This document shows positions 30,563 to 64,000 of a stretch of 64,000 nt of DNA, one piece after another. This DNA is from an uncultured Poribacteria bacterium. GTDB taxonomy: Bacteria; Poribacteria; WGA-4E; WGA-3G. The translations under genes were made by a program, and so were the position numbers. Positions within the stretch are counted from its first letter, which is position 1. Every line of letters begins with the position of its first letter. The notes below the pieces were generated by a model, which had not been told where the DNA came from, did no database searches, and saw only the letters and a list, made by a program, of their open reading frames with translations. The stretch covers positions 2,241,561 through 2,305,560 of the forward strand of contig OX639973.1 in the NCBI GenBank assembly GCA_951828385.1, read 5' to 3'.

Positions 30563-31510
30563 TCATTCGCTTTCATTTTCGCTATTGGCGAGGTGCGCCC
30601 GGAGGCGTTCTAACTCGGCTTCTATTGCCAGTCGTCTTTCGGCTTCTTCTCTGGCGCGACTTTCCGCGGCTTGCCGCTGTTCCGCTTCTTCTCTGGCGCG
30701 ACTTTCCGCGGCTTGCCGCTGTTCCGCTTCCTCTCTGGCGCGACTTTCCGCGGCTTGCCGCTGTTCCGCTTCCTCTCTGACGCGTCTTTCTGCCGCTTGC
30801 CGCTGTTCCGCTTCTCCTGCCAGCAGTTCTTCTGCTGCCACTCGTAGGTGATGTTCCTCCAGGGAAGTTGTAATAGCGGTGCCATCGGGAAGATACGGAC
30901 GTAAAAGCCGCAGCTCCCACGCCTCATGAAGCTCCCACCGAAAATAAAGGTTTAACGACGCACTGAACAAACCATCATCAGCCTCTTCTTCAATCTCAAC
31001 GATGTCGCCCAATGCATCCCGCCGCCACCCCCGAAATTCTATAGGGCGATTCATGTTGGGTTGATGAATGAAATACTCCGCAACCCCCATATCCCGCAGA
31101 TACACTTCAATTTTTTCATGCCGGTCCTCAGACGCTGTTGTATCTGAAAGGAACTCAAAAACTGCTGTAGGGACGGCGCCTTCTGCCCAGGTATAAAAAC
31201 TCCTTCGTAACGGAAGTTTCGCGGCACCAAGGGCGACAAACACATCGGGAGCCACGACCTTTCTGATATCGCCTTCGCGGTAATAGATAAAGTTGTCCAT
31301 ACCGACATGGATATACGGGTGTGCCTGAAAATATCGTAAGAACTGGTCAAATAAACTATGCATCTGCATTCCGTGAAATTCGCCTGCTGGCATGGGTTCA
31401 TCGTCCTCATAAGGGTAGCCTTCAATGTAAGTGGTCGGTTTTCCACTCGCTTTTGGAAAGACAGGCATGTATTTTCTTTGCTTGAGTTCAAAATCGTTTA
31501 GCGTATTCAT
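30563..31510 (-). CDS. Uma2-family (DUF820) putative endonuclease with a C-terminal coiled-coil tandem-repeat tail
   Basis: N-terminal ~230 aa Uma2-like (PVFPKASGKPTTYIEGYPYEDDEPMPAGEFHGMQM...VAPDVFVALGA...VFEFLSDTTASEDRHEKIEVY). C-terminus has 4 copies of the 14-aa unit AEQRQAAESRAREE. Confidence 0.7.
   Translation of the reverse strand: MNTLNDFELKQRKYMPVFPKASGKPTTYIEGYPYEDDEPMPAGEFHGMQMHSLFDQFLRYFQAHPYIHVGMDNFIYYREGDIRKVVAPDVFVALGAAKLPLRRSFYTWAEGAVPTAVFEFLSDTTASEDRHEKIEVYLRDMGVAEYFIHQPNMNRPIEFRGWRRDALGDIVEIEEEADDGLFSASLNLYFRWELHEAWELRLLRPYLPDGTAITTSLEEHHLRVAAEELLAGEAEQRQAAERRVREEAEQRQAAESRAREEAEQRQAAESRAREEAEQRQAAESRAREEAERRLAIEAELERLRAHLANSENESE
30643..30810. repeat. Near-perfect 42-bp tandem repeat x4 (coding; encodes the EAEQRQAAESRARE repeats of the Uma2 protein)
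   Basis: Unit cttcttctctggcgcgactttccgcggcttgccgctgttccg at 30643, 30685, 30727, 30769, with 0-4 substitutions per copy. Spawns artefact ORFs on both strands. Confidence 0.9.
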
Positions 31511-36422: not shown

Positions 36423-37339
36423 TCATCCTCCGAAGGTGAGCCTTTGATTTCATAGTTCGTTAGTTCGAGGGTACTCTCTCCATCAGGTTCCAATCCGAGC
36501 TGCTCCTTTGCTTCGTCAGACTCCGGATGCTCATGACTGAATTTGACAATACCGACGTTAGGTGCCAACCAGATTGTTGTTAGGGTCGTCCCGTTTCGTT
36601 CTTCCGGTTCTTGCTGCGGCGCACCAGGCACAGATATATTTACTTCAACCGTTTCGTTCGTCTGGTATTCAATGATCAAGCAGTCTTCAAACGTGCCAGC
36701 AGATGTTTCAACGGTTTCTGTGCCGGTAACTGTGCCTGTCTCAATGATGGTGCTATGGGTTTTGATAACCGGTGCACCGCCCGGTATTTCCATAGGTGCC
36801 CCTTGGATATCCATAGTCAGGGTGAGCGTAACATTTAACTCCAACGCTGTCCATTCTTCATTGTAGGCAATAGGTGTAGGTAGCAGATAGAAATAATCTG
36901 CGGATACCACCTCAATATCGTAATTCAAGTCAAGGGCGACCCCTTCAGGGGCATCCCCGAGCATTTGTTGACGTAGCATTGGCAGTATTTCTTCCATCTC
37001 TTGCGCTGTGCGTGCTTTAAGCCCGTTCTCAATTTCAGTGCCGACAAAGAACGCGACCCAGTCGTCCCCGACCTGATAAAAATACGGATGAATGTAATGC
37101 TCAAAGTCCGCCCAATCCTCCAAGGCGGGATCATAACTGAAGGCGCGATAGGTTTCGCCATCAATATCTTCAGGTGCTATGGCGTAGCGCGTTAATTCGT
37201 TCCCGTCTTGGTCTTCATAAGTCCAGTAGCTGCCAACTGCATCTGGAAAATAGTAGTTTGCCCATTCATTTCCGACGGACATCGCGCTGAAACCGAAAAT
37301 GAGTAAAAGGACAAAAACAGGCTGCATTTTTTTTAACAT
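36419..37339 (-). CDS. Secreted hypothetical protein, paralog 3 of a tandem triplet
   Basis: Signal peptide, then [42 protein letters not shown]... This is near-identical at its N-terminus to the 37407-38306 gene. SD AAAGGAA. Start at the ATG at 37339. Confidence 0.6.
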
Positions 37340-37406
37340 AAGAGATTCCTTTTGCGCCTCGCGGTAAACTTTCAAGTTCCCGAAAGCGGTGCTTCAGAAA
37401 GCGGAA

Positions 37407-38306
37407 TTAATCACTTTCACTGCTCTCTGATTCAGTGGATTTGATTTCATAGTTCGTTAGTTCAATGGTTTTAACGATGTCGGTACTTTCGGATTCCTGT
37501 AGCATTTTAACAATACCGACATTCGGAGCGAGCCAGAGCGTTGTCAACGCCCCCTTATATACATCCTCAAACATAGTTTTCGCTTCTGGTAGATCCGGTT
37601 CAGTCCTTATTGAGGCATCCATTTTATACTCAATTATTAGGCAATCTTCAAACGTACCGGCAGCGGTTTCGACCGTCTCTGTACCCGTTACATTCCCAGT
37701 TTCAACAAGCGTTAAGAACATTGTGATCATCTGACTTGTTGGTGGAAAACCCTCCACGTTGCTTGTGATGTCAATCTGCAGATCCATTTCCACATTAACG
37801 CGCGAAGCCTCCCACTCCTCATTGAACGTCGCAGGCGTTGGCAAAACATAGAAATAGTCTTGTGCCTCTATATCAAGTTCGTATGTTACATTAAGGTCAA
37901 CAGTCACCCCGGGTGGCAGTTGATTATTCAACTGTTGTTTCATCACTACCATAGCCTCGTTCCAGTGCTTCTCTGTGACCGCCCGTGTCGTATTCTCGAT
38001 ATCATCACCGACAAAGAACGCCACCCAGTCGTCACTGACTTGGTAAAAATAGGGATGAAAATAATACTGGTATTTTGTCCAGTCCTCCAAGACGGGTTCA
38101 TAACTGAAGGCACTATAGGTTTCGCCATCAATATCTTCGGGTGCTATGGCGTAGCGCGTTAATTCCTCACCGTCTTGGTCTTCATAAGTCCAGTAACTGT
38201 CGAGTGCATCTGGAAAATAGTAATTTGCCCACTCATTCCCCATCAATGTCGTGCTAAAACCGAAGATGAGTAAGAGAACGAAAACGGACCGCATTTTTTT
38301 TGACAT
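37407..38306 (-). CDS. Secreted hypothetical protein, paralog 2
   Basis: 299 aa, signal peptide, same family. SD AAAGGAA. Confidence 0.6.
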   Translation of the reverse strand: MSKKMRSVFVLLLIFGFSTTLMGNEWANYYFPDALDSYWTYEDQDGEELTRYAIAPEDIDGETYSAFSYEPVLEDWTKYQYYFHPYFYQVSDDWVAFFVGDDIENTTRAVTEKHWNEAMVVMKQQLNNQLPPGVTVDLNVTYELDIEAQDYFYVLPTPATFNEEWEASRVNVEMDLQIDITSNVEGFPPTSQMITMFLTLVETGNVTGTETVETAAGTFEDCLIIEYKMDASIRTEPDLPEAKTMFEDVYKGALTTLWLAPNVGIVKMLQESESTDIVKTIELTNYEIKSTESESSESD

Positions 38307-38384
38307 GAAGAGTTCCTTTCGCTATTTTTGCTAACTTTACAGAAAATGTCTACATATTTCGGGATTTCAGCATATAAAGCGGGA

Positions 38385-39323
38385 TTAATCGCTCTCACTG
38401 CTTCCGGACGCATCGGACGTGATTTGGTATTTCGTTAATTCAAAAGTCTTAACCGTGGCTGAGGATTGAAACTCAGGAGAAGGTATAGTTTTCAGAAATA
38501 TATCCTCTGTTTTCTGATGAAACTTCACAATCCCGACATTCGGAGCAAGCCACAACGTCGTAACAGATTCGCCGGGTGGATCATTTGCTGAGTGCTGTTC
38601 GACAGGTGACACTTCCATTGTCGTTGCTGTGCGGTATTCAATCTTTAAACAGTCCTCAAAGGTACCCGCCTGCGTTTCAACGGTTTCTGTGCTGAGGATG
38701 TTTCCGGTTTCGGCAATGTTAAAGTCAAGTATAATTTTTGGCATCTCATCTGTCGCGGGGAAATCAGCAGGTGCCCCTATGATTTCATACTGCATCGAGA
38801 CTTTCGCTTTTATCTGCGTTGTATCCCACTTTTCGTTTGGAGTTGTGGCAGTTGGAACCAGAACAAAATGGTCCTCTGCCTTAACCTCCACATCATAATT
38901 GATATCAAAGGAGATATTAGGTGCGTCGGGTGGCGGGTTGTCCTCTATAGATTTCTTCGCCATCTCGGTGAAAGCTTCCATCTCTTTGATAAGGCGTGCC
39001 TTCATCGCTTTTTCTATCTCGTCGCCGATGAGGCATGTAATACTCTCATCATCAACACTGTACAGGGACGGCAGAAAGTGATAAGCGTAATTTGCCCAAT
39101 CTTCTATGTCAGGTTCGTAAATGAAAATGTTATACGTTTCGCCAGCAATCTCTTCGCCTTCATCAACAGTGCGTGTCAATTCATTTCCATCTTGGTCTTC
39201 ATATACCCAATAGCTGCCAAACGTCCCCGGAAAATATGTTTTCGCCGTTTCATTTCCCATCAATGTCGTACTGCAACTGAAGACGAATAGGAAAACGAAA
39301 ACGGCTCGGATTTTTTTTAACAT
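38385..39323 (-). CDS. Secreted hypothetical protein, paralog 1 (more divergent)
   Basis: Signal peptide [58 protein letters not shown]. Start at the ATG at 39323. Confidence 0.6.
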   Translation of the reverse strand: MLKKIRAVFVFLFVFSCSTTLMGNETAKTYFPGTFGSYWVYEDQDGNELTRTVDEGEEIAGETYNIFIYEPDIEDWANYAYHFLPSLYSVDDESITCLIGDEIEKAMKARLIKEMEAFTEMAKKSIEDNPPPDAPNISFDINYDVEVKAEDHFVLVPTATTPNEKWDTTQIKAKVSMQYEIIGAPADFPATDEMPKIILDFNIAETGNILSTETVETQAGTFEDCLKIEYRTATTMEVSPVEQHSANDPPGESVTTLWLAPNVGIVKFHQKTEDIFLKTIPSPEFQSSATVKTFELTKYQITSDASGSSESD

Positions 39324-44412: not shown

Positions 44413-46041
44413 TTACTTCCGAATTAACATCTTACGCGTCGCAGTAAACTGCCCAGCTTTGAGCGTATAGAAATAGACTCCACTTGCGACTGGCTCTCCG
44501 TGAGCATTCTTACCATCCCAATAGGCAGCACGGTCTCTACTCTGATAGACACCTGCAGGCATTTCGCCTAACGGCAAACTCCGAACTAAAGCACCGTTCG
44601 CAGTATGAATGAAGACAGCGACTTCCGCTGGTTGCGCCAACTGATAAGGTATCCAAGTCTCTGGATTGAAGGGGTTGGGGTAGTTTGCCAAGAGCACTGT
44701 TTTTGGGGGTGTCGGTCGTGCCATCCGTGTCCCAACTGCCAAAAAGCGTTCTAAGATCGCGATCGTCTGTGGATCCGCACCGACATCCTGTGCCTCTTGG
44801 ATCCACTGCTGGACATCTTCTGCAGTGAAGGAGAAATCGTGTAGATGCTGTGCAAGAATAGGAGCCGCTTGGGAATCTACTGGTGCTTGGGCATCCACTG
44901 CCTTAGCAACAACAATGAGGTCTTCAATATTAACGACCCCATCTTTGTTGACATCCGCGCGTGGGTTTGCGCCATCTACGACAGTTTTTCCGTAGTTCTC
45001 TCCCACCTCAATAATGTCAAGATATGTGACACTACCGTCCCCTGTTATATCAACCGCTGCGAGTGGCTCCCACAAGCGGATTGTGTCGTCATCACTGCCA
45101 CTCACAAGAAGTGACCCATCAGAGTTCCAAGCAATTGTATTAACACTAGCGGTATGCCCTTTCAGAGTGGCTTTGTGTGCGCCAGTGGTGGAGTCCCATA
45201 AGCGGATGGTATCATCGCTACTGCCACTGGCAAGGATTGCCTCGGTTGGATGGAATGCCAACGTATGGACGTTACCGGTATGCCCTTCCAAGACGTGCAG
45301 CGGGGAATCCGTGTCCGTTGGGTCCCAAATACGGATGGTGTCATCGTTGCTTGCACTCGCGAGCAGCGTTCCATCAGGACTCCACGCAACCGATCTAACA
45401 GTATGCGTATGTCCGCGAAGTGTAGCAATGTTGGCACCGTTGTCTGGGTTCCACAAACGGACGGTACGGTCTCTACTTGCACTGGCGAGCAGCGTTCCAT
45501 CAGGACTCCACGCAACCGACTCGACATCATTCCGATGCCCCCGCAGTGTCCGAACGGGTCGACTTTTCCATGCGTCCCATGTTAAATCCCAGATACGGAT
45601 TGTGTCGTCATTGCTCCCGCTGGCAAGGATGGAGCTCCCCGGTTTAAAGGACAGCGTATTGACAGTGTTTGTATGTCCTGTGAGGTAACCTCTTATGTCT
45701 CCGTCATCTGTGTAAGACATCCCAATATAAGGGCGGAAAAAGAGTCCGCCGGCATAAACGACAAAACGCGAGTCATGCGATGAGATCGCAATATCAGAGA
45801 TTAAGAAGAGATCCACTTCGGTATGCCAAGGTTGTGCACCCGTGTCAAGATCCCAAAAGCGAAGGTCGCTATCGCCTCCCACACTGATAAGTGTGCTATC
45901 GTCTTTGAATGCCACTGCAGAGACATGAATTTTATGCCCGCTGAGCGTCCGAGTATGGAAGTACTCTTCGGCAGCGGCAAAAGGTAAAGTAACTGTGAAA
46001 ATGGACAGTAGCGTTAAAATCAAAAGGCTTATTTTTTTCAT
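44413..46041 (-). CDS. Secreted WD40 beta-propeller protein with a dockerin-like repeat and a T9SS-type (Por_Secre_tail/FlgD-Ig-like) C-terminal domain
   Basis: Signal peptide, about 7 WD40 repeats (LRGHTHTVRSVAWSPDGTLLASASNDDTIRIWD etc.), dockerin-like DVNKDGVVNIEDLIVVAKAV, C-terminal NYPNPFNPETWIPYQL...GVYFYTLKAG. Confidence 0.8.
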   Translation of the reverse strand: MKKISLLILTLLSIFTVTLPFAAAEEYFHTRTLSGHKIHVSAVAFKDDSTLISVGGDSDLRFWDLDTGAQPWHTEVDLFLISDIAISSHDSRFVVYAGGLFFRPYIGMSYTDDGDIRGYLTGHTNTVNTLSFKPGSSILASGSNDDTIRIWDLTWDAWKSRPVRTLRGHRNDVESVAWSPDGTLLASASRDRTVRLWNPDNGANIATLRGHTHTVRSVAWSPDGTLLASASNDDTIRIWDPTDTDSPLHVLEGHTGNVHTLAFHPTEAILASGSSDDTIRLWDSTTGAHKATLKGHTASVNTIAWNSDGSLLVSGSDDDTIRLWEPLAAVDITGDGSVTYLDIIEVGENYGKTVVDGANPRADVNKDGVVNIEDLIVVAKAVDAQAPVDSQAAPILAQHLHDFSFTAEDVQQWIQEAQDVGADPQTIAILERFLAVGTRMARPTPPKTVLLANYPNPFNPETWIPYQLAQPAEVAVFIHTANGALVRSLPLGEMPAGVYQSRDRAAYWDGKNAHGEPVASGVYFYTLKAGQFTATRKMLIRK

Positions 46042-46120
46042 CTGAATGCATCCTTTCCCGAAAACACTTTCGGGTGTAGATAATTTATGTTGCCCTAAAT
46101 TGCTCAAACTTTCAGTCGTT

Positions 46121-46179
46121 GTTTAATGATACAATTTGAAGGTCAAAAAGGTGCATAATGGGAAAAAAAATTGAATGAG
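46121..46179 (-). promoter_or_regulatory. Conserved ~55-bp upstream element, copy A (between the ECF-fusion 1 stop and the WD40 gene start)
   Basis: gtttaatgatacaatttgaaggtcaaaaaggtgcataatgggaaaaaaaattgaatgag. Matches copy B 49280-49338 at about 50 of 59 positions. On the coding (minus) strand it carries TGCACC-18-TATCAT. Confidence 0.55.
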
Positions 46180-46220: not shown

Positions 46221-49200
46221 TCAATCGTTTTTCTTCTCAAGCGCGGCATAAAACATCCCGCTCCGTTCGGTAACAATATAAAGCCTGTTACGCTTGACAG
46301 CAACAGAAATGACGCGGCTTGGTACGTTTGGCGAGATCTGTTCCCATCTGCCCCGAGTATCCAATTGATAGGCACCCGTATCGCCAGCACCATAAACGGT
46401 TATATCATCTACGGCAACTCGGGCTATGACGGTGTGTGTACCACCTTTATCGGTGATTGCGCGCCAATTTTCACCGTCTGCCGATGTTAAGACCCCCGCG
46501 TCTGTGGCGACATAAACCGTTGAACCCGCAAAAACAATATCGTTGAAATGTTCAAATCGAAGTGGCAGTGTTGCGGTCAGGTCTTTCCATGTGTTCCCGC
46601 TATCAAACGATCGGAACAGATGTCCATCCCGTTTGCCAACGTAGACGGTTTCACCTGAAACAGCCAGAACGAAATGATCGGGCCCCTCATGGTTAGTAGG
46701 TGCGTCAATGTCTACCAGCCCAGTGTCGAACCATTCAGGTTCGCCGCGTCTCCACCGCAGGAGCCGCCCCTGATATTCCACATAGAACGTATCACCGCTG
46801 ACTGCAAACGCGCTGTGAGATGCTATGGACTCGCGGGTTGTGTCTATCGATTTATCGGCTTTCTCAGGATCGTTAGGGGCAGCGTCGGGTATATTTCTTT
46901 CCGACATCTCTTGTGATGCAGTTTTTGGAGGCTCAATAGAAAGATTTTCACCCAAAACAGGGGCTTCTGGCATAAGCACCAGCACACCGCCATTCTTAGA
47001 AAGATGGAAGATGCGCTGCTCGGTACCTTCTATGTCTACGGAAAGTGCGGTGCCGATGCAGTAGAGTTTATCGTCAGAAATTGCCAGCTGCGAAGAACGG
47101 AGTAGAAGACCGACAGCCAATACCGATCCTAATTCTGGTGTTAATTGATCAGGGCTGAATCGCAGGTCTCTCCATGACATCCCACCGTCGGTGGATTTCG
47201 CGATATTTGTACCGGTATAGGCGTAGAGTGCGTTTTTGAATGCGACTAAGTTAGATATCTGGGTTCCGACCATGCCTGTCATAAACGGATGCCACGATTC
47301 GCCAGCATCGGTTGAACGGATAAGTCCAAAAGGACTGGCTTTGAACAGGATATTTTCGTTCATGCCAATAGCGGGGAATACACTCAGCATAAACGAATTC
47401 ATCATTGAAAGCGGATCCAATTTTTTGTATCCGTGGTTTGTCCATGTTTCGCCGCCGTCAGTCGATCGGCATTGGAAGCCGGTGTATCCCAATGCCCAAA
47501 GCGTTTTTCCAGCAGTAAGGACCTTAATGCCCGGGGATAGCATCGTCAAGACTGGCTCGCTTGTAGGTGTGATTTCAGTCCACGAATCGCCGAAATCGGT
47601 TGACCGGAAAATTTCCCACATAGACTGCCCGGCAGACACCTCTTCGCGTATTTCATCCTCTTTAAAGGCTCCCAAGTCGGGACCTGTCCCGACATAGAGG
47701 TTGCTTTCAGAAACCGCTAAGGAGTGGATAGCCTTAGTGGTCGTTAGCGGCAATTTTTCCCACATATCCATTGCCGAATTATGCCCTGGATTGATACGGT
47801 AGAGTCCCTGATTCGTTCCGATAAACATTGTGTTTTCAAGAGTAGCCAAAGCAAAGATTTTTCTATCCGTCACTTCACCACCGAGGGGTGTCCACTGCTG
47901 TCCCCTATCTTCGGATCGGAAAACACCTTTATCTCTCAGCAGGAGGTATAAGGCTTCATCCGTTACGGCCAATGCGACAGCAATACCTTCGGGGCGGGTG
48001 CCAATCGGCTCCCACATCTCGCCGCTATCGGTTGAGATAAGTACTTTATCATCAGAAATAAGATAAAGGGTTCCGTTTTGCTCCGCCATCGGTATCATGG
48101 GGGGTGCCTCCGTAGGTGTCTCCAAAGTTGTTGTAGGGCTGAGGAACGTCCATGCTCGTGTGTCTGGCGTTAATCTATAGACACCGAGACGCGAAGCGGC
48201 GTAGATATCGCCATTTGAACTTACCAGTAAGCCGCCTACGGGGCCGCTCGCTGGTACGCTCGCGGGTCTCCACTGCTGTGGTGTTGTCAGTGGTTCCTTT
48301 TCTATCTGCGCGACAGCAGGGACAACAGGCTCTGAAACTTGCGGCCCGGCACCGCTGCCCCGACCCGTGGTATCAGAACGTCCGGCTTGGTTCCGTAGGT
48401 CCGGTTCCGCCTGCGTATCAATAACAATGGGTGTGTCAATAATTTCAACAGTGGTTTCCGATTGGGCATTCAAGTTGTAAGGTCTCTGAAAGCGACTCAG
48501 GTATTGGGACCCGACACCGATCATCAGCATTATAAGAATGGTAGCGGTGCCAAAAGCGATCCAGGGTAGCAACGGTTTTCCAACCGAAGGTGGTGCTGGT
48601 TTGATGTCGGCAACTTGCTGCATAATACGCTCAATGAAATTGGCAGGCATCTGGACGTTTCCAAGCGTTTCGCTAATCAGGTGCTCTTCGGCTTGTAAAC
48701 GCTCCCGTGCCCGGCGAAGCCGACTTTTAATGGTGTTCACCGATACCCCTAAGAAATTGCCAATCTCCTTCGCCGTCATTTCACCGAGGTAGTAGAGCGT
48801 TACCACCGTCCGTTCACTCTCTGGCAATGTTTCCAGAAGCTCTTTGACGATTTCGTGGCGATGTTCCATCGCTTCCGCCTCCCGTTGCTCCGATACATAA
48901 CGTCTATAAGAAAATGCCTCTACGTCCGCTACAGATGTGTCATCCAGGGATTGCATCGCGGGTTTGTTGCTTTGATGCCACCTCTTGCAAAGATTACTCG
49001 CAATCACATAAAGCCATCCAGCAAACTGGCTGGGATTCCTCAGCCTTGCAAGGTTTTTGTATGCTTGGAGGAAGGCATCTTGGGCAATCTCTTCAGCGAT
49101 GTGAAAATCGCCAATCTTCCGCCACGCCAGCGCGTGAACGCTTTTTTGGTACTTTTGGACCAAAGCACTAAATGCCGCTTCATCACCCGACAAAATTCTG

Positions 49201-49229
49201 TGAATCAGTTGAACATCGTTTTCCACCAT
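46221..49229 (-). CDS. Membrane-tethered ECF sigma factor fused, via one TM helix, to a large extracytoplasmic BNR-repeat beta-propeller domain (paralog 1)
   Basis: N-terminal ~190 aa has sigma70 regions 2 and 4 (HIAEEIAQDAFLQAYKNL...; LGEMTAKEIGNFLGVSVNTIKSRLRRARERL). TM helix PLLPWIAFGTATILIMLMIGV. At least 8 Sx(D/S)xGxxW BNR motifs in the remaining ~800 aa. Start taken at MVENDVQ (49229) by homology with paralog 2. Confidence 0.8.
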   Translation of the reverse strand: MVENDVQLIHRILSGDEAAFSALVQKYQKSVHALAWRKIGDFHIAEEIAQDAFLQAYKNLARLRNPSQFAGWLYVIASNLCKRWHQSNKPAMQSLDDTSVADVEAFSYRRYVSEQREAEAMEHRHEIVKELLETLPESERTVVTLYYLGEMTAKEIGNFLGVSVNTIKSRLRRARERLQAEEHLISETLGNVQMPANFIERIMQQVADIKPAPPSVGKPLLPWIAFGTATILIMLMIGVGSQYLSRFQRPYNLNAQSETTVEIIDTPIVIDTQAEPDLRNQAGRSDTTGRGSGAGPQVSEPVVPAVAQIEKEPLTTPQQWRPASVPASGPVGGLLVSSNGDIYAASRLGVYRLTPDTRAWTFLSPTTTLETPTEAPPMIPMAEQNGTLYLISDDKVLISTDSGEMWEPIGTRPEGIAVALAVTDEALYLLLRDKGVFRSEDRGQQWTPLGGEVTDRKIFALATLENTMFIGTNQGLYRINPGHNSAMDMWEKLPLTTTKAIHSLAVSESNLYVGTGPDLGAFKEDEIREEVSAGQSMWEIFRSTDFGDSWTEITPTSEPVLTMLSPGIKVLTAGKTLWALGYTGFQCRSTDGGETWTNHGYKKLDPLSMMNSFMLSVFPAIGMNENILFKASPFGLIRSTDAGESWHPFMTGMVGTQISNLVAFKNALYAYTGTNIAKSTDGGMSWRDLRFSPDQLTPELGSVLAVGLLLRSSQLAISDDKLYCIGTALSVDIEGTEQRIFHLSKNGGVLVLMPEAPVLGENLSIEPPKTASQEMSERNIPDAAPNDPEKADKSIDTTRESIASHSAFAVSGDTFYVEYQGRLLRWRRGEPEWFDTGLVDIDAPTNHEGPDHFVLAVSGETVYVGKRDGHLFRSFDSGNTWKDLTATLPLRFEHFNDIVFAGSTVYVATDAGVLTSADGENWRAITDKGGTHTVIARVAVDDITVYGAGDTGAYQLDTRGRWEQISPNVPSRVISVAVKRNRLYIVTERSGMFYAALEKKND

Positions 49230-49279
49230 CAGCATTCTCCATGTCTCACGCATAAACGTGATTGTGTTTACATTCAAAT

Positions 49280-49338
49280 TGTTAATGATACAATTTTAAG
49301 GCGGAAAGGGTGCATGATTTGAAAAAAAATTGATACCC
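49280..49338 (-). promoter_or_regulatory. Conserved ~55-bp upstream element, copy B (about 55-110 nt upstream of the ECF-fusion 1 start)
   Basis: tgttaatgatacaattttaaggcggaaagggtgcatgatttgaaaaaaaattgataccc. See copies A and C. Confidence 0.55.
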
Positions 49339-49380
49339 ATAGGGTTTGGATTATAGTAAATTCCAAAAATAACACACTTT

Positions 49381-49575
49381 CAACACCGCAAAACCGCACC
49401 TACCGGACCTGGGAACTGAGACGGGATTCAAGAGGGTTTTGAAGTCCTCAAGGTTTCCGCGTAGTATCCGGTTCGGTTAGGAATGCAGGTCGCATTTGGG
49501 CGTGTACGCCGCGATGCACGTCGCATCTGGGCGTGTACGCCGCAAAAACCGAACCTACCGGGCCTGGGTCTGAAA
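49381..49575. repeat. Complex intergenic repeat region. Direct copies of CAAAACCGCACCTACCGGRCCTGGG flank a 2x direct repeat GTCGCATYTGGGCGTGTACGCCGC.
   Basis: 49389-49413 and 49545-49570 carry the flanking motif. The inner repeats are at about 49485 and about 49517. A further inverted copy of the flanking motif lies at 20643-20665. Confidence 0.6.
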
Positions 49576-49684
49576 CGGTTAAGGTAGGTCGTACGGGAAT
49601 GGATATGTTAAAAGTGCGCGCTAAATGTAGGAACAAAAAAGTCCTACTTTTTCAAGTTCAACTTTAAGATTTTGTGTGTCAAGT

Positions 49685-57229: not shown

Positions 57230-57379
57230 AGGTATAACTAAAGTTTGGACAATCGATTTGTGTATCAAGTAGCGTTTTCAAGGGGCTTGGTATTTTTCTG
57301 TGAGTTCTGTACCCAGGCAAACGCGGAAAAAACTATAACAGGTTAGTTACACAAGAGACACAGCCTAACAGGAGACCAT

Positions 57380-57574
57380 GCTACACAAGAGACACAAACT
57401 GGAAGTTTATGCTACACAAGAGACACAAACTGGAAGTTTATGCTACACAAGAGACACAAACTGAAAGTTTATGCTACACAAGAGACACAAACTGGAAGTT
57501 TATGCTACACAAGACACAACTGGAAGTTTATGCTACACAAGAGACACAAACTGAAAGTTTATGCTACACAAGAG
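57380..57574. repeat. Intergenic 31-bp tandem direct repeat, about 6.3 copies (gctacacaagagacacaaactggaagtttat)
   Basis: Units at 57380, 57411, 57442 (G>A variant), 57473, 57504 (28-bp short copy), 57532, and a partial seventh. Degenerate partial copies lie at 57341-57379. No unique spacers. Confidence 0.9.
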
Positions 57575-57663
57575 GGTATTCAAGTGGAAACCTGTGTCTA
57601 TTTTAAAATTGTCCAAACTTTAGTAGGTATAAGATATAATCTCCATTTCAAATTTTGTTCCCT

Positions 57664-60603
57664 CTATTTACGAGATAAGTTGTCTCCCGCTTCCGCAAGC
57701 GGAATCTGAAACATCCCGTTGTGTCTGGTAACAATATAAAGTGTGTCGTTTTTAACAGCGAGTGAGAGGACTTTATCTGGCACGCTTGGAAAAATCTGTT
57801 CCGATTGTCTACGGTCCTCTAAACGATAGACACCGGCATCACCAGCCCCATAAATTGTGGTACCATCAACAGCAAATCTGTCTATAACGATACGCTCGCC
57901 CGCGGTATCGGTCAGGACACGCCAATATGCGCCGGTTTGTGAAGCTAAAATACCTCTGTCCGTTGCGACGTAAGCCGTTGAATCGACAAAAACGATCTCC
58001 TTGAAATGGGTAAAACGTAGGGGCAGGCTGGGGGTAATGTCGCGCCAACTGTCGCCGCCATCAAGCGACTGAAAGAGCCTACCGTCTCGCTTACCGACGT
58101 AGACGGTTTCCGCTGAGACCGCCAATTTGAACCCATTTTTCGAGCCGTCATCAGCCCGTTTCCCGGTATCTATTAATCCGGTATTTTTCCATTCAGGATC
58201 ACTCGGTTTCCAATTAAAGAGTTTCCGCTTGTATTCCACGTAGAAAGTATCACCACTGATTGCAAACGCACCGGCTCTCTCATAGTTTTCACGAAAGGAC
58301 AAATCCCTCATCAATTTACGGTCCTTTTCAGGATCACCAGAAAAGGACATTCCCTGTGCTACCGCAATCTCCTTTAGCACCGCAGGAGACAGATTTCTCT
58401 TACCAAAATCGGGTACGCCTTGAACAGGGATAAACGTATTATCACCAGATAAATGGAAGATACGGAGGTTGTCTCGCCCAGACTCAATAGCATAAAGAAC
58501 GTCGTCAACAATCACAAATTTTGAATCAGTATCGAAGTCGGTGTTAGGAGATTCTCTTTTTGAGGGTTCAGATGCTTGTTCGGCGTAATCAACTGGAACA
58601 GGTGTCCAAGATTCGCCGTCATCAGCAGATTGAACCATATTGCCGTTAGCATGTACATAGAGGCTATTATTGAATACCACCAGATCTCGTGCTCCGGTGC
58701 CGACCATGCCGTCCATAAAATGATGCCACGATTCACCCGCGTCGGTTGTGCGATAGAGACCGGAGTTTCCGGTCTTGTAGAAGGTATTTTTATCGAATGC
58801 TAAATAGGCATAGGTATTTGAGACAGTGCCAAGATTTGTCCAAGTTATCCCGTCATCTTTTGAACAAAATAGCCTGAGACCGCGTGCTAAAATTGTTTCG
58901 CCTCTAACAGCCATTGCCATAGCAGATGCTGCTATAAGGGGATATTTTTTGTCTGTAGGCGTTATCTCGGTCCACGACGTTCCGAGATCGTTTGATTTGA
59001 AAATTCTGCCTGCCCGTGACAGATCAAGTCGCATGTGATCCTCAACTTTGCGACCTGTTCCGACATAGAGAGTATCTTCAAAGGCCACCAAGTCGTGTAC
59101 GGCTCTGGTTGTATCTACCGGTAACTGTTCCCAAACATCGGCGTTGAGGCGGTAGAGGCCTCTGTCTGTGCCAGTGAATACCGTCTCTTTAATCGCAGCG
59201 AGTTTGTAAATTTCTCTACCCGTTAATCCCGTGTTCACGGGTGTCCAGTGTTTTCCAGCATCGGTGGATCGGAAAACGCCTCTCTTCCAAAGGGCGAGAT
59301 ACATCGTAACATTCGCGGGTGCGTTGCGTCCATCTGCTGCATCTACCACGATGAGTTCAGCAGGGTGTCCTTCTGGCCGGTGCCCTAATGTATTCCACGT
59401 CTCGCCATCATCGGTTGAAGCTAATAGTTCATTGCCAGCGATGATATAGAGGGTGCTTGCATGCTCTGCTATAGGCACTCGCGGCATTTCGTTTGGAATA
59501 TTGACGTTTACGGGTGTCCAGAGAGTTGCATCTGCTGTTAACCTGTAGATGCCTATTGACGAATTAACGTAGAGTGTTTTGTTAGATGTCTCAAAGATGT
59601 CAAACACGAATCCGCCTGGCGGTCCGCCCATCTGTGTCCACGGCGCAGTCGAAAATGTAGCGGAGAAATCCGCCGTTGTTGTGGTTACGACAGCCGCCTC
59701 AGCAGTCTGTAAGCCGGTCCCGATGTTTTTGGTGGCGGTCGTCGTGCGTCCGACCTGATTTCGGACAGCTGGTTTGGAAAGCAGATGGAGCATGATAGGT
59801 GCGTCAACGATTTCAACCGTCGGTTCAGATTGTGCTTCAAAACTGTATGGCTGCTGGAAGCGCGCGAGATACTGATGATGCGTACCGAGCATCAAAACTA
59901 TCAAAAGCACAGCCGCGCCAAAAGCCGCCCACGGTAGCAACGGTTTCGCGACCTGCGGCGGTGTCAGTTTCAGATCGGCGACGTGCCGCATGATGTGCTC
60001 TGTTAGGTGAGTGGGTAATTGGAAATTCCCAAGCATCTCACGAATTAAGGATTCTTCGTTCCGCGCCTGTAAACGCTTCCGCGCCCGTTGAAGCCGACTC
60101 TTGATTGTGTTCGCGGATACGCCTAAGAAGTTGCCAATTTCTTTGGCAGTCATCTCGCCGAGATAGTGGAGCGTTACGACGGTACGTTCACTTTCGGGTA
60201 GTTTTTTCAGGAGTTCCTTAACGATTTCGTAGCGGCGTTCCGCGGCTTCCGTTTCTCGTTGCTCTAATACATAATGTTTATAAGAAGATTTTTCTACTTC
60301 TGTGCGAGATATTTTTTCCAGTGATAGCATTGGCGGTTTTTTATTTTTGAACCACCGAATGCACATCCGATTCGTAATTACATATAACCACCCTGCAAAT
60401 TGGTTGGGGTTTTGGAGTGTCGTGAGTTTTTTGTGGACTTGGAGGAAGGTATCTTGTGTAATCTCTTCAGCGATATGAAAATCGCCAACTTTCCGCCACG
60501 CGAGTGCGTGGACACCCTTTTGGTATTTTCGGACTAAAGCAGTGAACGCCGCCTCATCACCTGCTAAGGTTCTCTGGATTAATTGAACATCATTTTCTAC
60601 CAT
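57664..60603 (-). CDS. Membrane-tethered ECF sigma factor fused to a BNR-repeat beta-propeller extracytoplasmic domain (paralog 2)
   Basis: N-terminus MVENDVQLIQRTLAGDEAAFTALVRKYQKGVHALAWRKVGDFHIAEEITQDTFLQ... is highly similar to paralog 1. TM PLLPWAAFGAAVLLIVLMLG. BNR motifs STDDGETW, STDAGKHW, SNDLGTSW, SKDDGITW, TTDAGESW, SADDGESW, SLDGGDSW. Its SD AAAAAGGAG lies inside the upstream PD40b tail. Confidence 0.8.
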   Translation of the reverse strand: MVENDVQLIQRTLAGDEAAFTALVRKYQKGVHALAWRKVGDFHIAEEITQDTFLQVHKKLTTLQNPNQFAGWLYVITNRMCIRWFKNKKPPMLSLEKISRTEVEKSSYKHYVLEQRETEAAERRYEIVKELLKKLPESERTVVTLHYLGEMTAKEIGNFLGVSANTIKSRLQRARKRLQARNEESLIREMLGNFQLPTHLTEHIMRHVADLKLTPPQVAKPLLPWAAFGAAVLLIVLMLGTHHQYLARFQQPYSFEAQSEPTVEIVDAPIMLHLLSKPAVRNQVGRTTTATKNIGTGLQTAEAAVVTTTTADFSATFSTAPWTQMGGPPGGFVFDIFETSNKTLYVNSSIGIYRLTADATLWTPVNVNIPNEMPRVPIAEHASTLYIIAGNELLASTDDGETWNTLGHRPEGHPAELIVVDAADGRNAPANVTMYLALWKRGVFRSTDAGKHWTPVNTGLTGREIYKLAAIKETVFTGTDRGLYRLNADVWEQLPVDTTRAVHDLVAFEDTLYVGTGRKVEDHMRLDLSRAGRIFKSNDLGTSWTEITPTDKKYPLIAASAMAMAVRGETILARGLRLFCSKDDGITWTNLGTVSNTYAYLAFDKNTFYKTGNSGLYRTTDAGESWHHFMDGMVGTGARDLVVFNNSLYVHANGNMVQSADDGESWTPVPVDYAEQASEPSKRESPNTDFDTDSKFVIVDDVLYAIESGRDNLRIFHLSGDNTFIPVQGVPDFGKRNLSPAVLKEIAVAQGMSFSGDPEKDRKLMRDLSFRENYERAGAFAISGDTFYVEYKRKLFNWKPSDPEWKNTGLIDTGKRADDGSKNGFKLAVSAETVYVGKRDGRLFQSLDGGDSWRDITPSLPLRFTHFKEIVFVDSTAYVATDRGILASQTGAYWRVLTDTAGERIVIDRFAVDGTTIYGAGDAGVYRLEDRRQSEQIFPSVPDKVLSLAVKNDTLYIVTRHNGMFQIPLAEAGDNLSRK

Positions 60604-61211
60604 CCGGATTCTCCTTTTTCAGTTGTCCCCAGGTCGTCGATAGCAACGCCGGCTGCGGCGAGACCGGCAACGCATACGCTGGATTAAACCAATCCGCGTT
60701 GGCGTTATCACCCCGGCGCGTGAGTTGTTCTGGAACACCGTCGTCCGAAGCGATTTTGAAGAGTTGTCTGAAACCACGAACCCGTTTATCGTAAATGAGT
60801 TCATTCCCGTGCGGTGCCCAGGCAGGATTAGACGCGAAGTTGCCGCCTCCATCTGCAATCTTCCGGAGTCCGCTACCATCTTGGTTCACAACATAGACCC
60901 CCATAGTGTGTCCTATCTCTTGCCTACCTGTCCAAAAAAAGGCTATCTGCGCGCTATTGGGTGCCCAAGCTGGGTCAAACATCCCAATCTTCCCCGGAAG
61001 AATTTTCTCTTCTACATGCGTTTGTAGATTAATAATCTCGACCCTGACGTTCGGTGCTTGGAGATTTCCGTTTTCAGCCCAAACGAACTTGGCTGCCATA
61101 AAGGCTATCTCAGAACCGTTAGGAGACCACGCATGCTTTGGCAAAAAGTGGACGCATCATTCCACACATCAGCATCCAGAAGATGATAGAAAAAACCAAC
61201 TTCAATCTCAT
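60590..61211 (-). CDS. Exported PD40/TolB-like repeat protein (paralog b), frameshifted at a T5 run after the signal peptide. C-terminal ...STTWGQLKK tail. Its 3' end overlaps the ECF-fusion 2 start by 14 nt.
   Basis: The ORF-track part 60590-61144 starts at TTG. Upstream, GGAGGAATCGGT-ATG (61209-61211) encodes MRLKLVFSIIFWMLMCGMMRPLFAKAC... in the +1 frame. Removing one T of ctttttgcc fuses the two. PD40 motifs AWSPNGSEIAF, PAWAPNSAQIAF, PAWAPHGNELIY. Confidence 0.6.
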
Positions 61212-61292
61212 ACCGATTCCTCCGATTCGTAATTTTAGGACCAATGATTCAAAGCCGTCATTCTGTCGCGCGTGTCGGCATGGCACTATTAT

Positions 61293-61352
61293 CCAATTAT
61301 TAAAGAGACTATTTTTAAGGGCAAAGGGTGCATAATTTGAAAAAGTGGATAG
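61293..61352 (-). promoter_or_regulatory. Conserved ~55-bp upstream element, copy C (about 80-140 nt upstream of the PD40b signal-peptide ATG)
   Basis: ccaattattaaagagactatttttaagggcaaagggtgcataatttgaaaaagtggatag. Shares the core TTTTAAGG-N4-AAAGGGTGCATNATTTGAAAAA with copies A and B. Confidence 0.5.
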
Positions 61353-62880: not shown

Positions 62881-64000
62881 TCAAACGGTGTCTACCGGGT
62901 CTGGGGATTCTAATGCCGGTAGGTTGTCGATAATATCCACCGTCTTCACGCTGACAGTGATGACTTTGCCGATTAACTTGACGATATACTGCGGGTCATC
63001 GGTGCGGTTTGGGTCGTTGACGATGCCGCTCCGTTTGTCCGTTTTGACACGATATTGGTCGATTACCCACTCCAGCGCGGAACGGGTGCCGAGCCGGTAG
63101 TCGAAGACTTTTGGCGGTATCCCATCAAGCGTCAAGAATTTATTGTAGACAATCTGTGTTTTGTCTTTCGAGAGTTTCATCTTCTCAACGCGCCAATCGA
63201 GCGGCACCTCCGGGGTCTGGATGAACTTGAGTTTATCGTATTCGGGTTGCGATTCGTAGGTGACGTGGAGATCCGCTAACCTCGCGCCTGCCTTTGCAAA
63301 CCCCCAGAAGTTTTTAGCGAGAGGGATATGCGGTAGATCGCGTTTGAGGTTCGCTTCGTATTTTTCGCGATACTCCGGGTGATGCAAGAGTCCGTAGTTA
63401 TAGTGGAAGATGTCCCACTTGCTGATGGTGTCGTCCGCGTAATGCGTGCGGAATTGCGTCAATGCCCAATCGGTGATGTTCTCGCGGCGATTTGTGCCGT
63501 CTTCGTCGTAGGTGTAGAAGGGAAAGCATTGGGCACTGCAACCTGGACCCACAACATGGAGGTCGGTGAGTTGGTCGCTCATAAGAACCATGAAAGGTTT
63601 TTCAGACCCCTTATCCGTCAGGCAAATCACTCGATTTTCCGTCTCTGTCTCTGAAATCGGAAAAATAAAAGGAAATACAAGCACTCTATCATTCATCATT
63701 CGATCAAAATAGAGGTTAGATTTCGTAAAGGGACGATAAAGAGATTGCCGGATTTTTGCCTCTGTAAATGCCTCCACCTGACCATTTCGCAGTTTTTGCT
63801 TTAAAGTTGAACTCCACTTAATTTTTGTCCCATCAGAAATTACGTAATCATCAAGGTTATCACTCCGATCCGTCCGTTGTCCCCATCGTGCAACTTCCGC
63901 ATTGTAATTTTCAATCATTCTCCTTATGTTTTCAGTTAGCGTGCTTCGGTTGAAGTTGCAAACCCATGCATCGCGATTGGTTTTCACACCGTTGCTGTAG
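62881..64000 (-). CDS. C-terminal (target-recognition/coupler-like) region of a large restriction-modification-type enzyme (type IIG/ISP or BREX PglX-like). Partial: the N-terminal part lies beyond the window end.
   Basis: The frame stays open to the window edge. Motifs recalled from MmeI/type-ISP/PglX-like methyltransferase C-termini: LYRPFTKSNLYFD, CFPFYTY, LPHIPL, FWGFAKAGARLADLHVTYE, LDGIPPKVFDYRLGTRSALEWVIDQY. Assignment is from memory, not from a search. Confidence 0.35.
   Translation of the reverse strand, partial: YSNGVKTNRDAWVCNFNRSTLTENIRRMIENYNAEVARWGQRTDRSDNLDDYVISDGTKIKWSSTLKQKLRNGQVEAFTEAKIRQSLYRPFTKSNLYFDRMMNDRVLVFPFIFPISETETENRVICLTDKGSEKPFMVLMSDQLTDLHVVGPGCSAQCFPFYTYDEDGTNRRENITDWALTQFRTHYADDTISKWDIFHYNYGLLHHPEYREKYEANLKRDLPHIPLAKNFWGFAKAGARLADLHVTYESQPEYDKLKFIQTPEVPLDWRVEKMKLSKDKTQIVYNKFLTLDGIPPKVFDYRLGTRSALEWVIDQYRVKTDKRSGIVNDPNRTDDPQYIVKLIGKVITVSVKTVDIIDNLPALESPDPVDTV

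Follow-up and report, generated by a model that had tools for sequence, protein, structure and literature searches.

In Bacillus subtilis, the promoters read by extracytoplasmic function (ECF) sigma factors combine a -35 of the AAC type with a -10 of the CGTC type, and the -35 is followed by an nTTTt tract, described as a selectivity and bending element (PMC5758882). For instance, sigma-W uses TGAAAC-N16-CGTA, and the promoters of sigma-X, sigma-M and sigma-V carry CGAC or CGTC together with the -35-proximal T-tract. In addition, some ECF sigmas are joined to their sensor. IutY of Pseudomonas putida (ECF243) and SCO4117 of Streptomyces (ECF52) consist of an N-terminal ECF sigma, one or more transmembrane (TM) segments and an extracytoplasmic sensor in one polypeptide, and in IutY regulated proteolysis (Prc, RseP) releases the sigma domain and so activates the protein (PMC8999054). 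In this study, we analysed a stretch of 64,000 nucleotides (hereafter the window) from an uncultured Poribacteria bacterium (assembly GCA_951828385.1, contig OX639973.1, positions 2,241,561 to 2,305,560 of the forward strand), in which an element of ~55 bp occurs three times (copies A, B and C) upstream of genes of an accessory locus. The comparisons made here indicate that each copy is very probably a minus-strand promoter of the ECF type (group 4 of the sigma-70 family). Furthermore, they support the view that the element would serve a Poribacteria-specific family of ECF sigma-sensor fusion proteins both as autoregulatory promoter and as promoter of their targets.

The element shares several features with the B. 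subtilis promoters. Both have a bipartite structure with a TGxAAC-type -35 and a CGTx-type -10, both are autoregulatory, and both carry a T-tract right after the -35 (TGCACCyTTTt here, tGAAACnTTTt there); in both, paralogous sigmas appear to share the -35 and to be told apart by details of the -10 (PMC5758882). However, the -35 here is mostly TGCACC (ACC, not AAC), the gap exceeds theirs by ~1-2 nt, discrimination falls to bases at -14 to -12 and not at -9/-10, and the sigmas are fused to their own membrane sensor with no separate anti-sigma partner. The fusions resemble IutY and SCO4117 in their one-polypeptide design, but they have no recognisable anti-sigma domain or zinc finger, the linker is only ~35 aa long, the sensor is a BNR/Sortilin-type propeller region of ~730 aa, and there are many paralogues per genome. 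Meanwhile, the sigma-I/RsgI sets of Clostridium thermocellum (PMC10575876) also include multiple paralogous sigmas coupled to membrane sensors, related autoregulated promoters and dockerin-bearing secreted targets of the cellulosome, and the locus studied here has dockerin, glycoside hydrolase (GH)-like and leucine-rich repeat (LRR) genes. Nevertheless, sigma-I is not an ECF sigma and RsgI is a separate anti-sigma protein. The parallel is an analogy and not a homology. In kind, the element is a canonical autoregulated ECF promoter, which a specialist would expect 5′ of ECF genes. What is added here is a regulon link, seen across the phylum, to secreted repeat and dockerin proteins, and an apparent code between residue 85 of the sigma and the -12 base.

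The minus-strand TGCACC of the three copies starts at 46155, 49314 and 61332. A repeat search grouped 46123-46174 (copy A) with 49282-49333 (85% identical to A) and 61300-61351 (65%), and the core AAAGGGTGCATNATTTGAAAAA had three matches at up to three mismatches, against 0.00 expected from 100 dinucleotide shuffles. Furthermore, a weight matrix of 56 columns, built from 59 Poribacteria copies, recovered exactly copies A, B and C from the 64 kb at 62-75 bits, and no other site of at least 15 bits was found on either strand of the window or in 20 shuffles. Thus, the three copies that had been proposed by a sequence-only reading of this DNA were found again by each of these searches. All of them lie on the strand of the downstream genes (minus), and copy C is in register with A and B without any indel, the differences being substitutions.

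Promoter copy A (46115..46170, minus strand, 62.0 bits) is located 5′ of a gene for a protein with a signal peptide, a WD40 beta-propeller and a dockerin (44413..46041, minus strand; Pfam), which is its predicted target. It includes a T-tract (46163-46169), the -35 TGCACC (46150-46155), a -35-proximal T-tract (46145-46149) and the -10 region TATCATTAA (46123-46131), in which the core ATC occupies -12 to -10. The T of TGCACC lies 114 nt from the start codon (ATG 46041), and the arrangement of promoter and WD40-dockerin gene was identical in five other loci (L017, L020, L025, L037 and L061). Promoter copy B (49274..49329, minus strand, 75.1 bits) lies 5′ of the first sigma-sensor fusion gene (ECF-fusion 1), a placement that would be autoregulatory. 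Its -35 TGCACC is at 49309-49314 and its -10 region TATCATTAA at 49282-49290; a Shine-Dalgarno sequence GGAGAA precedes ATG 49235, 79 nt from the T of TGCACC, and the same 79-nt distance was found in the orthologues of L037, L046, L055, L061 and L072. Promoter copy C (61292..61347, minus strand, 62.4 bits) lies 5′ of an operon of PD40b and ECF-fusion 2, with TGCACC at 61327-61332, the -10 region TCTCTTTAA at 61300-61308 and a Shine-Dalgarno sequence GGAGGAA before ATG 61211, at a distance of 121 nt. The variant of copy C was also present in L039, where it precedes an intact PD40 gene and then an orthologue of fusion 2, and in L004. The predicted start of transcription lies ~37 nt past the T of TGCACC, at about 46118 in A, 49277 in B and 61295 in C. 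In all three cases a good Shine-Dalgarno sequence accompanies the start codon.

The distribution of the element was investigated with the exact pattern AARGGTGCATRATKKGAAAAA, which was scanned against one genome per species (185,579 species), and the ~8-kb loci around the matches were fetched. Finally, 73 loci were obtained, and 56 of them were assigned to Candidatus Poribacteria. These comprised 53 loci from metagenome-assembled genomes (MAGs) titled Poribacteria, of many species, and three from MAGs titled 'uncultured bacterium' (L018, L025 and L045), which contain the full extended motif and which we grouped with Poribacteria. The other loci were single chance matches in AT-rich Bacteroidota and other lineages, and the extended consensus beyond the pattern was not seen in these non-Poribacteria matches. 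The window DNA was 85-94% identical to several of the Poribacteria loci. In addition, when the fetched loci were scanned with the weight matrix, the 428 kb of Poribacteria DNA yielded 14 more degenerate copies, and the 120 kb of other DNA yielded none; the degenerate copies include the -35 variants TGCAAC, TGCAAG and TGCACG. As a separate observation, seven Bacteroidota matches (L006, L014, L032, L043, L054, L058 and L069) share a longer string, ATTTTTCAAATTATGCACCCTTGC, and similar flanks. This string may lie inside a conserved protein-coding gene of Bacteroidota and seems to be unrelated to the promoter.

The order of segments on the gene strand is a T-tract, aaTTATGCA(C/A)C, nTTTT, N, AAAATTG and (C/T)(G/A)TC(A/T)(C/T)TAA. 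The window copies read T-tract, (A/C)(A/C)AT(T/C)ATGCACC, (C/T)TTT, N and AAA(A/T)T(T/A)G, followed by TATCATTAA in A and B or by TCTCTTTAA in C, with ATC at -12 to -10 in A and B and CTC in C. The -10 of A and B is thus of the GTATC type, and the variants GTGTC, GCGTC and ACGTC were found elsewhere. This is a bipartite motif of the ECF type, TTATGCA(C/A)C, N19, GTC(A/T)(C/T)TA, at a fixed spacing, and the gap from TGCAMC to GTC was 19 nt in 26 of the 30 sites that were found independently of the search pattern. Among the Poribacteria copies (n = 58), the pattern-free positions from +9 to +36 were strongly conserved (T+26 in 52/58, C+27 in 53/58), and the consensus 3′ of TGCACC was yTTTT..CC..AAAATTG(T/C)(G/A)TC(T/A)(T/C)TAAnAAT. 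[quoted passage not shown] It should be noted that the 58-copy alignment is biased at 21 pattern-forced positions, and our conclusions were drawn from the protein-selected set.

Furthermore, the upstream T-tract of the element has the position of a proximal UP element, TTATGCA(C/A)C corresponds to an extended -35, and an A-tract and a TG at -15/-14 precede the GTC-type -10 with its A/T-rich discriminator. Each conserved segment of the ~55 bp can thus be matched to a known sub-element of promoters; a separate operator is therefore unnecessary, and the one that the sequence-only reading had added to the promoter can be dropped. The same reading had described copies A and B as TGCACC-18 bp-TATCAT. 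TATCAT does overlap the core; however, it is not TATAAT-like, and the ECF-type (G/A)TC core lies inside GTATCA.

The genes behind the promoter were then surveyed in Poribacteria. Eighteen of the 58 copies lie directly 5′ of a homologue of the ECF fusions (sigma-domain E-values 1e-86 to 1e-125), and in 12 further copies one gene stands between the copy and the homologue, giving a total of at least 30 of 58; several more copies sit 3′ of an ECF-fusion gene, like copy A. In these copies the element is placed on the sense strand of an ECF gene or operon, as in the window, where B precedes fusion 1 directly and C precedes fusion 2 at the operon level. The other first genes encode WD40-dockerin, PD40, Kelch, Laminin_G_3, trypsin plus TPR and TPR proteins, STAS proteins (anti-sigma antagonist family), GT4 glycosyltransferases, a small ECF and proteins without a Pfam match. 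In L015 (7163-7272), two full promoter copies lie 89 bp apart, 5′ of a GT4 glycosyltransferase gene. In addition, the variant GCGTCTTTAATAATTGAAA was found in eight Poribacteria loci (L026, L030, L033, L052, L053, L068, L001 and L027), and six of these extend far enough downstream to show a STAS anti-sigma-antagonist gene of 113 aa behind it, with no fusion sigma nearby. This arrangement hints at a link to partner-switching regulation.

ECF-fusion 1 (46221..49235, minus strand) is a protein of 1004 aa with the contact residues R85, Q88 and R174, and ECF-fusion 2 (57664..60603, minus strand) is a protein of 979 aa with the same architecture and R85, K88 and Q174; their sigma domains are ~72% identical. 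Each contains sigma2 and sigma4 (residues ~1-185), the linker, one TM helix and the extracytoplasmic part, which makes it an ECF sigma and a sensor in a single polypeptide. Pfam Sigma70_r2, r4_2 and ECF families matched residues 9-184, and the hydrophobic segment at ~222-245 was read from the sequence. The extracytoplasmic part had BNR, Sortilin and DUF6242 matches and a sub-threshold match to a glycosylhydrolase family, and no Pfam family of anti-sigma domains (ASD/ZAS) matched between sigma4 and the membrane. The sigma domain passed the cut-off of the TIGR02937 superfamily, and its best equivalog and PDB matches were SigW and RpoE, the best PDB sequence match being SigW (5wuq, E = 5e-25). 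Paralogues were 40-50% identical to fusion 1 over the full length and ~60-77% in the sigma domain, and the sigma domain and linker were far more conserved than the sensor.

The family of the fusions is large. Among 8,000 scored candidates, 7,503 had E ≤ 1e-10, and the best 120 were mostly full-length with the fusion architecture and belonged to Poribacteria wherever a name was given; the annotations of these 120 say no more than 'sigma-70 family RNA polymerase sigma factor' or 'hypothetical'. A search of the literature for ECF sigmas with Poribacteria found nothing. The main text of Casas-Pastor 2021 does not mention Poribacteria, BNR or propeller, and the family was not placed in a named ECF group.

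For an unbiased test, only protein similarity was used to choose loci. Nine fusion paralogues were aligned (A1), and the alignment was scanned against metagenome contigs, which gave 52 close-relative loci (L074-L125) and 28 distant-ECF loci (L126-L153). A relaxed core, TG[CT]A[AC][CG]-N17-19-[GA]TC[ATC][CT], was then searched within 260 nt upstream. It was found on the sense strand in 30 of the 50 close loci with enough upstream sequence and on the antisense strand of the same upstream regions in none of the 50, and the antisense background density gave ~0.016 expected matches per region. Furthermore, weight-matrix matches of at least 12 bits occurred in many close loci, where they were confined to the gene strand, and the 28 distant-ECF control loci had none. 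The consensus of this set was aaTTATGCA(C/A)C, N19, GTCA(C/T)TA.

The sigma domains also vary together with their promoters. After clustering of 83 distinct sigma domains, each domain was matched with the site upstream of it, and counts were made per sequence cluster. Three alignment columns (85, 88 and 174) hold most of the mutual information with the promoter bases: residues 85 and 88 track -14 to -12, and residue 174 tracks the middle base of the -35. Residue 85 was R or K in 5/5 clusters with A at -12 (GTATC) and in 0/23 with G (Fisher P = 5e-5), and residue 88 was R in 12/12 clusters with C at -13 (Fisher P = 1e-5). Meanwhile, residue 174 was R in 13 of the 14 TGCACC clusters and another residue (H, Q, Y or S) in 10 of the 15 TGCAAC clusters (Fisher P = 0.002). 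When promoters located upstream of the operon were added, D at residue 85 went with ACGTC at -14 to -10 in 5/6 clusters, N with GTGTC in 10/11, K/R with GTATC in 7/8 and A with GCGTC in 7/8; with S or T the bases were mixed. In addition, in a neighbour-joining tree built without the three columns, lineages with R/K85 and GTATC appeared in at least three places among lineages with N85 and GTGTC.

The co-varying residues can be compared with those of E. coli RpoE (sigma-E). By an alignment made by eye with the RpoE sequence, we take residue 174 to be the equivalent of F175 and residue 81 that of N80, and residues 85 and 88 are presumably the equivalents of N84 and V87. By the same alignment, residues 85 and 88 lie one and two helical turns past the N80 equivalent in the region-2.4 helix, and the middle base of the A(A/C)C triplet is -32 in the RpoE register. 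In a PDB search, RpoE chains matched over these residues, and the residue pairings that it gave were those of SigW and 8z6g_B. According to Todor et al. (PMC7776599), F175 co-varies with the -32 base and N80/I77/A60 contact -11T. Because of the by-eye alignment and these contacts, the co-varying positions appear to lie where sigma meets DNA. As in the sigma-E system, GTC stands at -12 to -10, and co-variation falls on or next to N80/I77/A60 (-11) and F175 (-32); the method, autoregulatory promoters combined with mutual information, is also shared with Todor et al. 2020. However, unlike in the RpoE code, the sigma-2 residues involved here (the N84 and V87 equivalents, by eye) pair with -12 to -14, beyond N80, and such a pairing is not named in the available part of that paper.

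From these data, we propose with some reserve that Poribacteria possess a multi-channel array of membrane-tethered sigma-sensor proteins, whose paralogues share the -35 and are insulated from each other by residue 85: D, N, K/R or A at this position, combined with R or Q at 88, would be set against ACGTC, GTGTC, GTATC and GCGTC. Such a code, which we would not yet count as probable, would switch distinct sets of secreted eukaryote-like repeat (WD40, PD40, Kelch, TPR and LRR) and dockerin or GH-like proteins. The broader proposal of the sequence-only reading, a shared promoter that marks a regulon and is driven by the ECF sigmas themselves, gains support from the anatomy, the phylum-wide conservation, the 30/50 protein-selected loci and the co-variation.

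Several observations weigh against this interpretation. The -35 and the -10 stand 1 nt further apart than in the sigma-E promoters of E. coli, and ~40% of the homologue loci have no recognisable motif directly upstream. In some of these the motif stands 5′ of the operon, and in others it is absent; among the loci without a direct site, some carry a same-strand site further up, at -424, -955, -1480 or -2024. In addition, 5 of the 27 distant-ECF control loci match the relaxed core, which is unsurprising because TGxAAC...CGTC is a generic ECF pattern. Several copies precede STAS, GT4 or TPR genes with no fusion gene in the available sequence, and other sigmas could be using the motif there. The residue-85 rule is not absolute, since fusion 2 (R85) has GTCTC and not GTATC, as the single exception to the pairing of R/K with GTATC. 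Furthermore, the co-variation is partly confounded by shared ancestry, as orthologous genes inherit their promoters, and the neighbour-joining tree is weakly resolved, so kinship is only partly controlled.

A different explanation is that the element is a housekeeping (sigma-70/sigma-A) promoter overlapped by an operator, with TGCACC and AATTG...AATT as the binding site of a dedicated factor. The spacing of TGCACC-18-TATCAT allows this, many copies have A/T-rich TAATAAT or TATAAT strings 3′ of the GTC core, and in the pattern-selected set AATTG occurs both at +19 and at +34. However, the AATTG at +34 to +38 was not conserved in the unbiased set. A sigma-70 consensus scan of the gene strand gave no match in A or B and a weak one (9/12) in C, and the match counts were not above shuffles around A and B and only weakly so around C. 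Since it also leaves unexplained the co-variation of bases with ECF residues and the fixed 19-nt gap between TGCAMC and GTC, we consider this explanation improbable.

Alternatively, the element could be an ECF-type promoter that is read by a different, stand-alone ECF sigma, such as the 223-aa ECF of L009 and L067, with the fusions as its targets. A copy does lie 370-700 nt 5′ of the small ECF gene in these two loci, membrane-tethered sigmas might be inactive, and the motif precedes the STAS gene in eight genomes. Nevertheless, in cluster after cluster the promoter variants follow the residues of the fusion sigma next to them, a pattern that one sigma acting in trans would not give, and the small ECF is only ~30% identical, with an ambiguous alignment in region 2.4. 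We regard this possibility as quite unlikely. An extension of the residue code to the stand-alone ECF of L009 was tried as well; the pairwise alignment has a gap in region 2.4 that makes the mapping ambiguous, and the result was not used.

A repeat of ~55 bp that occurs several times per genome might also be a dispersed repeat, such as a miniature inverted-repeat transposable element (MITE), a structured RNA or a terminator, unrelated to transcription initiation. However, the copies have neither terminal inverted repeats nor flanking duplications, and their flanks differ from one to another. Only 1 of 60 copies lies inside a long open reading frame (ORF), although such ORFs cover 80% of these loci, and the copies are always sense to the downstream gene. 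By this orientation and intergenic placement a MITE or dispersed repeat is effectively refuted, and the randomly placed repeat that the sequence-only reading had named as a possible refutation was, as far as testable, not seen. The RNA element and the terminator were rejected too, since folding of the three copies on both strands was no better than shuffles (z from -0.76 to +1.12). An Rfam scan of the whole window at the gathering threshold gave 0 matches, and no terminator-like hairpin overlapped a copy or lay between fusion 1 and copy A. All of these explanations are very improbable. A sigma-54 promoter on the plus strand, built on GG-N10-GC from the CC at +13/+14 and the palindromic TGCA, is extremely improbable: A and B do read AAGG-N9-GGTGCAT with the correct 12-nt GG-to-GC register, and 34 to 41 of the 58 pattern-selected copies have the CC, but it is kept in only 10 of the 30 unbiased sites, copy C has no such register, the promoter would be antisense to all neighbouring genes and run into the 3′ end of the upstream gene, and the conserved GTC...TAA block and the sense-only orientation to ECF genes would be left unexplained.

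If the element is an ECF promoter of the fusion sigmas, the regulon could work as follows. The N-terminal sigma domain of the ECF-sigma/TM/beta-propeller fusions would be the promoter reader, and two such fusions are encoded in the window. The propeller domain would sense a signal, and the sigma domain would be freed from the membrane before acting, for example by regulated proteolysis as in IutY, which by analogy is the most likely release mechanism here. Copy B would then autoregulate fusion 1, and copy C would drive PD40b and fusion 2, and perhaps also the LRR/dockerin/GH-like genes that follow on the same strand. Copy A would drive the WD40-dockerin gene; it has the same GTATC -10 variant as the promoter of fusion 1 itself, and the order of fusion 1, promoter and WD40-dockerin gene recurs in at least five other genomes. 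Because of this shared variant and the recurring synteny, both A and B can be provisionally assigned to fusion 1.

Such a system would be the equivalent, in a symbiont, of the clostridial sigma-I/RsgI regulators of the cellulosome, and it would offer the first regulatory handle on the 'eukaryote-like proteins' that have long been suspected in the interaction of sponges and symbionts. It provides a concrete promoter model and a putative sigma-to-promoter assignment for an uncultivated, sponge-associated phylum, and it connects a large unstudied family of sigma-sensor fusions with the secreted WD40/PD40/Kelch/TPR/LRR and dockerin proteins that are typical of Poribacteria genomes. The regulons could be enumerated by scanning complete MAG chromosomes. 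In addition, the pairing of residue 85 with -12 is a compact natural test set for the rules of ECF -10 specificity, and it may yield orthogonal sigma/promoter pairs for synthetic biology.

The first gene after promoter C, PD40b (60590..61211, minus strand), is frameshifted. Its true start is ATG 61211 and not the TTG at 61144. From this ATG the signal-peptide ORF extends only to a stop at 61119, and a different frame holds the PD40 body (60590-61144). In L039 the orthologous ORF is intact and has 343 aa, and PD40b is either a pseudogene or the result of an assembly error. The start of fusion 2 overlaps the stop of PD40b by 14 nt, as in an operon. From copy C down to 49685, all genes lie on the same strand with short gaps and encode PD40b, fusion 2, LRR-GHL15-dockerin, LRR, GH-like-dockerin, PD40 and Laminin_G_3 proteins. 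The three promoters may account for the transcription of the whole accessory locus of ~17 kb.

Several repeats were found in and around this locus. The long intergenic region 5′ of promoter B (49340-49684) contains a GC-rich tandem of two 31-nt units, ATGCACGTCGCATCTGGGCGTGTACGCCGCG, at 49483-49543, which is bordered by near-identical CCGGTAGGT(G/T)CGGTTTT(T)GCGG repeats; the whole looks like a small inserted element. Meanwhile, a tandem repeat of a 31-nt unit, ATGCTACACAAGAGACACAAACTGGAAGTTT, with ~6.5 copies and 94% match (57347-57591; 57378-57574 by TRF), occupies the 395 nt that separate the stop of ECF-fusion 2 from the start of the LRR-GHL15-dockerin gene. This tandem repeat had no promoter-matrix score and no likeness to the -35/-10 register. 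Seven copies of a 60-nt repeat at the DNA level, corresponding to dockerin modules, occur between 44896 and 55375 and are common to four genes, namely the WD40-dockerin gene and the ORFs of 643, 174 and 676 aa. In addition, 300-nt repeats with 84% identity are located between 53225 and 55241. This suggests that the dockerin-bearing genes were recently duplicated or shuffled.

Elsewhere in the window, three tandem repeat units of ~1 kb with 62-83% identity lie at 36443-39309 and are probably tandem paralogous genes or domains, and a 42-nt tandem array of five copies, apparently in frame, lies at 30596-30847. At the edge of the accessory locus, an ORF at 62881-63987 (minus strand) matches the C-terminal specificity domain of Type ISP restriction-modification enzymes (PF18135, E = 8e-104).

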